The notes below the pieces were generated by a model that saw only the letters and a program-made list of their open reading frames with translations, did not search any database and was not told where the DNA came from. 27,668 bases of DNA from a virus, in the UHGV virus genome UHGV-0347332, one strand, 5' to 3'. Shown here piece after piece: positions 20,444 through 21,085 of this stretch. A program made the position numbers and the translations under genes. Position 1 is the stretch's first letter. Every line of letters starts with the position of its first letter.

Positions 20444-20444
20444 A

Positions 20445-20531
20445 TCACCACCAACGGATTGCCCAGACCAGAACAGCAATGGCCACAATACGAATGGCAA
20501 ATGCCATTGCCCGAATAAGTTCAGCACTCAT
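20445..20531 (-). CDS. 28-aa hydrophobic peptide ORF abutting the Rz start
   Basis: [28 protein letters not shown]; no clear Shine-Dalgarno; may be non-coding. Confidence 0.2.
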
Positions 20532-20661
20532 CTTTTTAAAGTTCACGATTTCAGCGCAATGACCAGTTTTGCCAGCCCATACAGCATCGGAGACACAGCA
20601 ATACCAACAGCCACCCACTTAATAGCAAAAGCCAGCGCTCTGCTGATGTCATCAGTCACTG

Positions 20662-20793
20662 TCACCCCAGCAGCCCCGACGAAGACAACATCACCCAGGC
20701 GAGGGACAGAAAAAGAGCAACCAGCATTAGTGAAAATGAAATACCGACAATCACACACAGGACCTTTGCCGGCGTTATGAGTTTGTCTGACAT
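20662..20793 (-). CDS. 43-aa single-transmembrane peptide
   Basis: MSDKLITPAKVLCVIVGISFSLMLVALFLSLAWVMLSSSGLLG with AAGGGG 5 nt upstream; different frame from the track ORF 20543-20815. Confidence 0.35.
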   Translation of the reverse strand: MSDKLITPAKVLCVIVGISFSLMLVALFLSLAWVMLSSSGLLG

Positions 20794-20956
20794 AGCTACC
20801 CCTTAATTGCCACAATTAACTGGGATACTACCCATAAAAAAGGGATGCTCCAGACCAGCAAAAATTTCCAGTTTGGTAATTGACTAATCATGAGTCGCAA
20901 CTCCCTAATCAGTTTGCTAAAATCAATCAAGGCAGCCTCCCATAGCTTACTGCCAT

Positions 20957-21000
20957 AAAAACAAAACCCCGCTTGCTGCCAACAAACGGGGTTTTTACTT
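20957..21000. terminator. Bidirectional intrinsic terminator (9-bp stem CCCCGCTTG/CAAACGGGG flanked by A-run and T-run)
   Basis: Seen directly; lies just after the endolysin gene. Confidence 0.5.
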
Positions 21001-21085
21001 TTATTCACTTAGGTTTTGCCAGTTCACAGGACTTCGTGTTATCCGCCCGCGTTGGCCAACCTCATTTTTCAGCAAAATATTCTGC

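Follow-up and report, generated by a model that had tools for sequence, protein, structure and literature searches.

Layout of the insert between R and Rz

In the 27,668-nucleotide (nt) virus genome UHGV-0347332 (called the window below, meaning this whole stretch of DNA), we analyzed the interval between the endolysin gene R and the spanin gene Rz in the late region of a lambdoid prophage. R ends at 21086 and the Rz ATG lies at 20443, leaving an interval of 642 bp (20444 to 21085), in agreement with the ∼640 bp given by a first-pass annotation of the window. R, Rz, the genes between them, and all relevant lysis genes are carried on the minus strand. In the DLP12 and Qin prophages of Escherichia coli K-12, R and Rz have nothing inserted between them and share a 4-nt overlap; compared with the simplest cassettes, the 642 bp are therefore genuinely inserted. 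Many E. coli genomes, O25b:H4 records among them, carry the region at 100% identity. The insert was detected, in whole or in part, in 2,068 of 5,426 complete E. coli genomes (38%), often several times per genome, and at least 80% of it was present in 587. Its GC content (42 to 48%) is lower than that of R and Rz (53 to 57%). The insert very likely consists of an intrinsic terminator and an array of four genuine, closely spaced genes for micro-proteins with helices of membrane type; the genes, designated A to D here, run directly into Rz.

Gene A (20796 to 20930) encodes 44 amino acids (aa), (M)IDFSKLIRELRLMISQLPNWKFLLVWSIPFLWVVSQLIVAIKG, from a TTG start codon at 20930. The start is preceded, with a 5-nt spacer, by the Shine-Dalgarno (SD) sequence GGGAGG (20941 to 20936; SD:anti-SD energy, −10.2 kcal/mol). 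A forms the 3′ part of a long open reading frame (ORF; 20796 to 21008), which crosses the terminator and has a weak start of its own (SD energy, −1.5 kcal/mol). Gene B (20662 to 20793) begins with ATG and encodes the 43-aa peptide MSDKLITPAKVLCVIVGISFSLMLVALFLSLAWVMLSSSGLLG. Its SD sequence, AAGGGG (20804 to 20799), stands 5 nt upstream (−8.4 kcal/mol), and the product contains a single transmembrane segment of strong hydrophobicity (Hessa sum, −3.5 kcal/mol), which bears out an earlier call of a 43-aa single-transmembrane ORF with a good SD sequence. Gene C (20543 to 20665) encodes 40 aa, (M)TVTDDISRALAFAIKWVAVGIAVSPMLYGLAKLVIALKS, from a GTG at 20665, with an alternative GTG 6 nt downstream at 20659; it is the 3′ part of a second long ORF (20543 to 20815), whose start has an SD energy of −3.9 kcal/mol. 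The first-pass annotation correctly placed both long ORFs in frames other than that of B and saw that one of them spans the terminator, but it treated them as irrelevant, yet their 3′ ends are C and A. Gene D (20445 to 20531) encodes 28 aa, has no SD sequence, and is the 28-aa ORF previously reported to stop next to Rz. Its last codons, CGT TGG TGG TGA, carry the SD sequence of Rz (GGTGGTGAT, 20452 to 20444). All four junctions are short: the A stop and B start are 2 nt apart, the B stop and C start overlap in GTGA, D starts 11 nt after the C stop, and 1 nt separates the D stop from the Rz start.

Upstream of these genes, folding and a terminator scan identified an intrinsic terminator at 20953 to 20995 on the minus strand, consisting of a stem-loop (20995 to 20963) and a U-tract (20962 to 20953). 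On the gene strand, the hairpin comprises 15 pairs, including G-U pairs, and a 3-nt loop followed by GUUUUUAU; the 81-nt fold has an energy of −26 kcal/mol (z = −2.7). The corresponding plus-strand hairpin contains one internal mismatch, is followed by the U-tract UUUUUACUUUUAU, and reaches −19.7 kcal/mol (z = −2.6). The terminator is thus strong in the direction of the genes and, judging from the fold, plausibly bidirectional, as the first-pass annotation had claimed. That annotation also placed it at the very start of the insert, whereas it lies ∼90 nt past the R stop. Approximately 25 nt separate its U-tract from the start of A, too little space for a promoter, and no terminator was found between D and Rz. 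The region contained seven terminator-like sites, compared with 2.5 ± 1.7 in shuffled sequences, and the hairpin at 20963 to 20995 was the longest. A second strong terminator-like hairpin (22595 to 22567, minus strand), with 12 pairs and a T-run, was observed immediately upstream of the holin gene, so that the late operon is punctuated by terminators.

Coding evidence, families, and predicted helices

To evaluate coding, we gathered ∼270 related loci (from IMG/VR, from phages in GenBank, and from assemblies) and compared their dereplicated DNA in all three frames. For each of A, B, C, and D, purifying selection was observed in the proposed frame only, as measured by the ratio of nonsynonymous to synonymous polymorphism (pN/pS). 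The lowest ratio was that of C (0.20; 30 variants), against 0.97 and 7.4 in the other frames, with stops in all variants; variable sites at first, second, and third codon positions numbered 15/9/31. Codons 2 to 27 of A gave 0.28 (11 variants; pS, 0.40; other frames, 0.77 and 2.41), and D gave 0.36 (9 variants; other frames, 0.65 and 1.59; variable sites, 10/2/13). For B, from which frameshifted copies were removed, the ratio was 0.45 (35 variants; other frames, 0.88 and 1.45; variable sites, 26/20/31). Because the alternative frames failed this comparison, the overlapping 33-, 57-, 70-, and 90-aa readings are not the selected frames. The conservation of the peptide ORFs in relatives, on which the earlier proposal depended, was found across these loci.

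The same question of reading frame affects existing annotation. Gene A is not annotated in PGAP or RefSeq. RefSeq record WP_042004856.1 (51 aa; 20543 to 20698, minus strand) reads C from a CTG that lacks an SD sequence, overlapping B by 37 nt. We rejected this 51-aa PGAP start, together with the long-ORF starts (−1.5 to −3.9 kcal/mol), in favor of the internal starts given above. The 70- and 90-aa entries in GenBank and PHROG are over-extended versions of A and C; phrog_3246 was built on the over-extended 90-aa ORF, and phrog_4493 was probably built on over-extended ORFs as well. All four peptides match PHROG families labeled "unknown function" and are in that sense already known, carried as "hypothetical" wherever they are annotated. 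The matches were phrog_6632 for A (profile hidden Markov model; E = 1.3e−12, as part of the 70-aa ORF), phrog_4906 for B (E = 4.5e−21), phrog_1115/3246 for C (phrog_1115; E = 6.4e−25), and phrog_4493 for D (E = 3.8e−6), the last belonging to the family group of C. We found no match for the peptides in Pfam, NCBIfam, or PDB sequences, including no toxin or holin family; no match to PADLOC defense profiles at E ≤ 1; and no Rfam family in the insert at E ≤ 1.

When 1.8 billion cluster representatives were searched in full with a profile, the A family proved small, with only 38 clusters, essentially all of 24 to 86 aa. Homologs occur in Escherichia, Salmonella, Citrobacter, Enterobacter, Klebsiella, Providencia, and one Actinobacillus phage. 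In the first six genera, the start codon is kept at the same position as TTG, GTG, or ATG, and the N terminus is nearly invariant (xDFSKLIRELRxMxxxLPxWKF). The AlphaFold2 (AF2) model of A, for which hydrophobic moments were computed, predicted an amphipathic helix (residues 4 to 16) and a membrane helix (residues 21 to 43) whose Hessa sum is borderline (+1.4). Matches to B formed 103 clusters at 90% identity, and all those with a named source were from E. coli; the ORF was intact in the 35 unique DNA variants, and transmembrane hydropathy stayed between 2.1 and 2.5 across variants. C was represented by 69 clusters from E. coli and Salmonella, a taxonomic spread taken from protein clusters and IMG/VR loci. 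AF2 modeled it as one continuous helix (residues 2 to 39; predicted local distance difference test score [pLDDT], 94) with 19 invariant columns, AFAIxWxAVGxxVSxxLYGxAKLxxAxKS. These columns, which include small-residue motifs and a face formed by G21, S25, and Y29-G30, run along the helix, and the near-invariant sequence suggests that C has a specific helix-helix partner. The helix is weakly hydrophobic (Hessa, +3.4), resembling in this respect the N-terminal signal-arrest-release (SAR)-like segment of the R endolysin (+3.1). D, a paralog of C, gave a borderline Hessa value of −0.9. Transmembrane prediction, as advised in the first-pass annotation, thus returned helices for A to D (by Hessa, and by AF2 for A and C).

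Profile comparisons argued against several broader identities. The grouping of A, B, and C into one superfamily was rejected (hhalign, 3% and 0.3%), and a relationship was seen only between C and D. The idea that B is a duplicated Rz transmembrane domain was likewise rejected (hhalign probability, 0.5%). The peptides do not resemble holins, given C-terminal tails of 2 to 14 residues that are uncharged or +1 and an hhalign probability of 4% against the cassette holin, nor do they resemble spanins, being 28 to 44 aa long and devoid of a lipobox, with Rz and Rz1 separately present.

Hairpin and gene arrangements in other lysis cassettes

The hairpin recurs with the small genes. In eight aligned contexts with differing upstream genes, a AAAACCCCG...CGGGGTTTT hairpin immediately precedes the first small gene, which is A, C, or, at locus L171, a 65-aa ORF. 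It is often accompanied by a conserved leader ending in AAGGGAGAA, and its inner stem contains compensatory changes. In one of the eight contexts, a 78-aa ORF stands between the endolysin gene and the hairpin. Contexts that carry ant or a gene for a 231-aa protein have a different terminator in the same place. These hairpins may serve as marks of a module boundary rather than as stops for late transcription and would insulate the spanin and structural late genes from transcription that has not been antiterminated. When the inner part of the hairpin in the window was compared with that in L171, L260, and L268, the reverse complement matched better (0.73 versus 0.53 identity), an observation that is only suggestive of an inversion of the palindrome, with respect to the genes, in some lineages.

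As the first-pass annotation had recommended, we compared R-Rz intervals in related phages, and the same families recur in the endolysin-spanin slot of many unrelated cassettes. Besides the A-B-C-D order of the window, sampled loci had C-B (the commonest among those sampled), A-B-C, C-D, and C-B-C-D. Further arrangements included the 231-aa gene followed by A′-B-C-D, ant-B in the Shiga toxin (Stx) phages P27 and Ss-VASD (giving ant-B-Rz), ant-B-D-Dam, and a 50-aa ORF followed by C-D. The families are therefore shuffled as modules. Overall, members of A, B, C, and D lie between endolysin and spanin in approximately seven cassette types that differ in holin and endolysin and come from several genera. 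Cassettes with an S21-type holin and a SAR lysozyme carry the peptides in the window and in Stx phages, and the peptides also occur in Stx2 phages. In Salmonella, holin_2_3 and a lysozyme are followed by C and then Rz. Cassettes with holin_8/holin_3_7 vary in their endolysin: a GH19 enzyme is followed by A and then by a 92-aa inner-membrane spanin (i-spanin) plus an outer-membrane spanin (o-spanin), an M15 peptidase by A and B, and a GH108 enzyme by the 65-aa ORF, C, B, and a 51-aa lipoprotein. In yet another type, a lambda-S-type holin, an endolysin, and the 78-aa ORF precede A and a DUF2514 spanin. The module is present in plaque-forming phages, as A-B-C-D in PhiR5_1 and as C-B in the PhiR12 series, and the cultured Salmonella phage SPN3UB carries A, without annotation, in its lysis cassette.

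The GH108 type was examined at L171 (2600 to 3480) and also occurs at L172, L173, and L191. It has the same terminator, its 65-aa ORF is a transmembrane ORF, its B is divergent, and its lipoprotein has the lipobox LVGC. No i-spanin gene was called ahead of the terminase gene in these cassettes, and the peptides together with the 51-aa lipoprotein might take part in envelope disruption there.

Some proteins in the comparison were chimeric (P0165, P0202, and P0211). P0165, from a 554-nt contig, joins a holin N terminus to the C terminus of C; the others combine an A-type N terminus with a C-like "FGLAKLL" C terminus. In addition, the frameshift variants of B (∼8 loci) read into an alternative frame. 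These chimeras and frameshifts point to frequent recombination among micro-genes, or they may in part be assembly artifacts.

Candidate roles of the peptides and neighboring genes

Lysis of Gram-negative hosts is usually described in terms of holin, endolysin, and spanin. Accessory membrane lysis factors are few (P2 LysA, Mu releasin, and antiholins), and each has altered the lysis model. LysA is a multi-pass membrane protein that serves as an accessory factor in lysis timing and is encoded between the endolysin gene K and the spanin genes LysB/LysC. By analogy, we give a probability of roughly 0.4 to the reading in which A to D are non-essential accessory membrane peptides that participate in the membrane steps of lysis, resembling LysA in position and logic. 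As with LysA, these are membrane protein genes placed after the endolysin gene and before the i-spanin gene, they are non-essential, and they are presumably expressed late. They differ in that LysA is larger and multi-pass, whereas A to D are four single-helix peptides of 28 to 44 aa, and in that none of the profile libraries connects them with any named family of lysis regulators.

Since no promoter was detectable downstream of the terminator, transcription of A to D would depend entirely on late RNA polymerase that Q has rendered resistant to terminators, and the genes would share an mRNA with holin, endolysin, and spanin. Coupled translation would then yield the peptides, which late in infection would enter the inner membrane, where they could act on holin triggering, SAR-endolysin release, or spanin activation. 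B is frameshifted in 8 of 240 copies (∼3%), and a few A copies are truncated. The genes are dispensable; together with the K-12 cassettes that lack the peptides, this fits an accessory role. The first-pass suggestion of membrane peptides affecting lysis is accordingly upheld as regards conserved coding and predicted transmembrane or hydrophobic helices, and its lysis component is suggested by gene position only. A wider proposal, that A, B, and C/D form an unrecognized class of accessory lysis proteins, mix-and-match late inner-membrane micro-proteins with their own upstream terminator and leader that tune or gate holin triggering, SAR-endolysin release, or spanin firing through specific helix-helix contacts, is speculative, and we think it rather unlikely.

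Other known systems share some of these features. Mu gp25, or releasin (DUF2730), has 99 aa, with an N-terminal transmembrane anchor and a 73-aa acidic cytoplasmic domain (PMC9239132). Like A to D, it is small and membrane-bound, its gene lies no more than a few genes from that of a SAR endolysin, and it is an accessory outside the holin/endolysin/spanin triad (PMC9239132), but A to D are nearly devoid of a soluble domain and match neither DUF2730 nor any other Pfam family. The S21 pinholin/antiholin belongs to the same cassette, and the weakly hydrophobic, Gly/Ala/Ser-rich helix of C bears some likeness to its second transmembrane domain (TMD2). However, C lacks the charged C-terminal domain and the dual-start motif of the pinholin.

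Several points weigh against the accessory-lysis reading. We found no experiment or paper that ties the A to D families to lysis, and neither the supplements of small-gene ribosome profiling (Ribo-seq) in enterohemorrhagic E. coli nor an Enterobacteriaceae microproteome paper mentions them. The possibility that C mimics pinholin TMD2, raised by the KWVAVGIAVSPMLYGL likeness and the P0165 chimera, was rejected as unsupported (hhalign, 4%; C versus B, 9%). The absence of a sigma-70-like site on the gene strand between 19900 and 22700 comes from a consensus scan, which weak promoters could escape. The pN/pS of B is only moderately low, and D, with no SD sequence and only nine variants, has less support than A, B, or C. 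The R-Rz slot also holds clearly non-lytic cargo, namely the antirepressor gene ant, the 231-aa protein, and a Dam-like methylase, so that the position may be merely an insertion hot spot. Finally, family A also occurs in tail or baseplate operons of Citrobacter, Klebsiella, and an Actinobacillus phage (L261, 3001 to 3138; L264, 2501 to 2638; L271, 1795 to 1932). In Citrobacter (L261), A lies between tail genes I and J with terminators on both sides and a promoter-like site 80 nt upstream; in a Klebsiella grimontii prophage and in Actinobacillus phage vB_Apl-pPE4, it lies between a baseplate protein gene and a gp25-like gene.

The unrelated cargo and the tail and baseplate copies are what would be expected if the peptides were conflict or cargo genes (morons), encoding small inner-membrane proteins for superinfection exclusion or for blocking membrane-acting host defenses, with the R-Rz gap as a permissive hot spot and no connection to lysis. 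We consider this account, the main rival, unlikely, if still a serious contender. In its favor, the families occur in many shuffled combinations and show the diversification seen in conflict genes, and the insert, of atypical composition with GC below that of its neighbors, separates genes that are adjacent in relatives. The HK97 gp15-type exclusion morons, too, are small inner-membrane protein genes between conserved late genes, a placement similar to that of A in the Citrobacter and Klebsiella prophages. Such morons have their own promoter upstream and a terminator downstream, however, whereas the terminator here is upstream, no promoter-like site was seen on the gene strand by consensus scan, only ∼25 nt are available between U-tract and A start, and the genes are coupled to Rz. 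For these same reasons (no promoter, upstream terminator, and coupling to Rz), a lysogen would not be expected to express them. The lack of a PADLOC match also speaks against the moron account, and recurrence beside spanins in approximately seven cassette types exceeds what a single hot spot explains.

The tight junctions raise a different prospect, in which translating the small ORFs, above all D, sets the level of Rz/Rz1 and the products themselves are irrelevant. The 1-nt spacing between the D stop and the Rz ATG, the Rz SD sequence within the end of D, and the absence of an SD sequence for D itself are consistent with such coupling, which is plausible for D alone; as a general explanation it is improbable, given amino-acid-level selection in C, in A, and even in D, where second codon positions hardly vary. 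Moreover, D is separated from Rz by a methylase gene in the ant-B-D-Dam-Rz arrangement, members of the A family end in RWW even where no spanin lies downstream, and Rz is translated in the K-12 cassettes, which have no ORF of this kind. Decay, another option raised in the first-pass annotation, would leave remnants or chance ORFs in a spacer with the terminator as its sole functional element. T-rich sequence readily yields hydrophobic ORFs, some copies of B and A are frameshifted or truncated, and D is short, with no SD sequence and few variants. Yet pN/pS values of 0.20 to 0.45 in the proposed frames only, ORF lengths and starts kept over 60 to 100% identity and across genera, and reuse of the genes as modules in many arrangements contradict decay for A, B, and C and, more weakly, for D, making it very improbable. 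Least probable of all, and to an extreme degree, is a type I toxin-antitoxin system built on the type I toxin-like peptide that had been suggested, in which an antisense RNA running from ∼20823 on the plus strand to the bidirectional terminator would silence a membrane toxin. The peptides match Hok, TisB, Ldr, Ibs, ShoB, ZorO, and DinQ in size (small ORFs under ∼60 aa) and hydrophobicity, a plus-strand promoter-like site is present at 20787 to 20816 (CTGACA-18-CACAAT), and the hairpin has a plus-strand U-tract. However, promoter-like sites occur at chance frequency (2 versus 2.9 in shuffled sequences), and the −10 element is not conserved in the C-B arrangement (L005). A to D also have no antisense or cis-acting RNA family (Rfam, E ≤ 1), no antitoxin RNA with its own promoter, no sense promoter, no long structured 5′ untranslated region, and no Pfam or NCBIfam toxin homology, and they lie inside a late operon rather than at a stand-alone locus.

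If A to D do tune the timing of lysis, they would affect burst size and, in the case of Stx phages, the release of toxin; if they are instead exclusion or anti-defense peptides, they add to the catalog of phage micro-proteins. Either way, the analysis corrects the annotation (A is unannotated, and C and the 70- and 90-aa ORFs are misannotated) and defines a four-gene set.

The surrounding genes are those of a late region. In the genome with identical sequence, PGAP lists in order a SASA esterase, the holin, a YdfR-family gene, R, three small "hypothetical proteins," Rz, the terminase, and head and tail genes. The holin (22312 to 22527, minus strand) is of class II, phage 21 S type. R (21086 to 21619, minus strand) encodes a 177-aa rrrQ-like lysozyme, a SAR endolysin with a weakly hydrophobic N-terminal segment. 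Rz, the i-spanin (19949 to 20443, minus strand), is named "lysis protein" by PGAP, and the o-spanin ORF Rz1, with the lipobox LVVSAC in its frame, is embedded in it (20038 to 20223, minus strand). Only Rz is listed in the identical RefSeq record, where Rz1 is not annotated. Upstream of the lysis genes, PGAP describes an Stx-phage-like late region (∼24792 to 26291 and 26341 to 27390) with IraM on the opposite strand, tRNA-Arg, tRNA-Ile, and a DNA methyltransferase, and its annotation of this region contains no stx genes. The YdfR-family gene (21963 to 22307, minus strand) lies between holin and endolysin, and a 90-aa PGAP coding sequence on the plus strand (21725 to 21997) overlaps its 3′ end. 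Downstream, a "hypothetical" 71-aa ORF (19737 to 19952, minus strand) overlaps the Rz stop by 4 nt and is followed by an oppositely oriented YlcI/YnfO-family gene.

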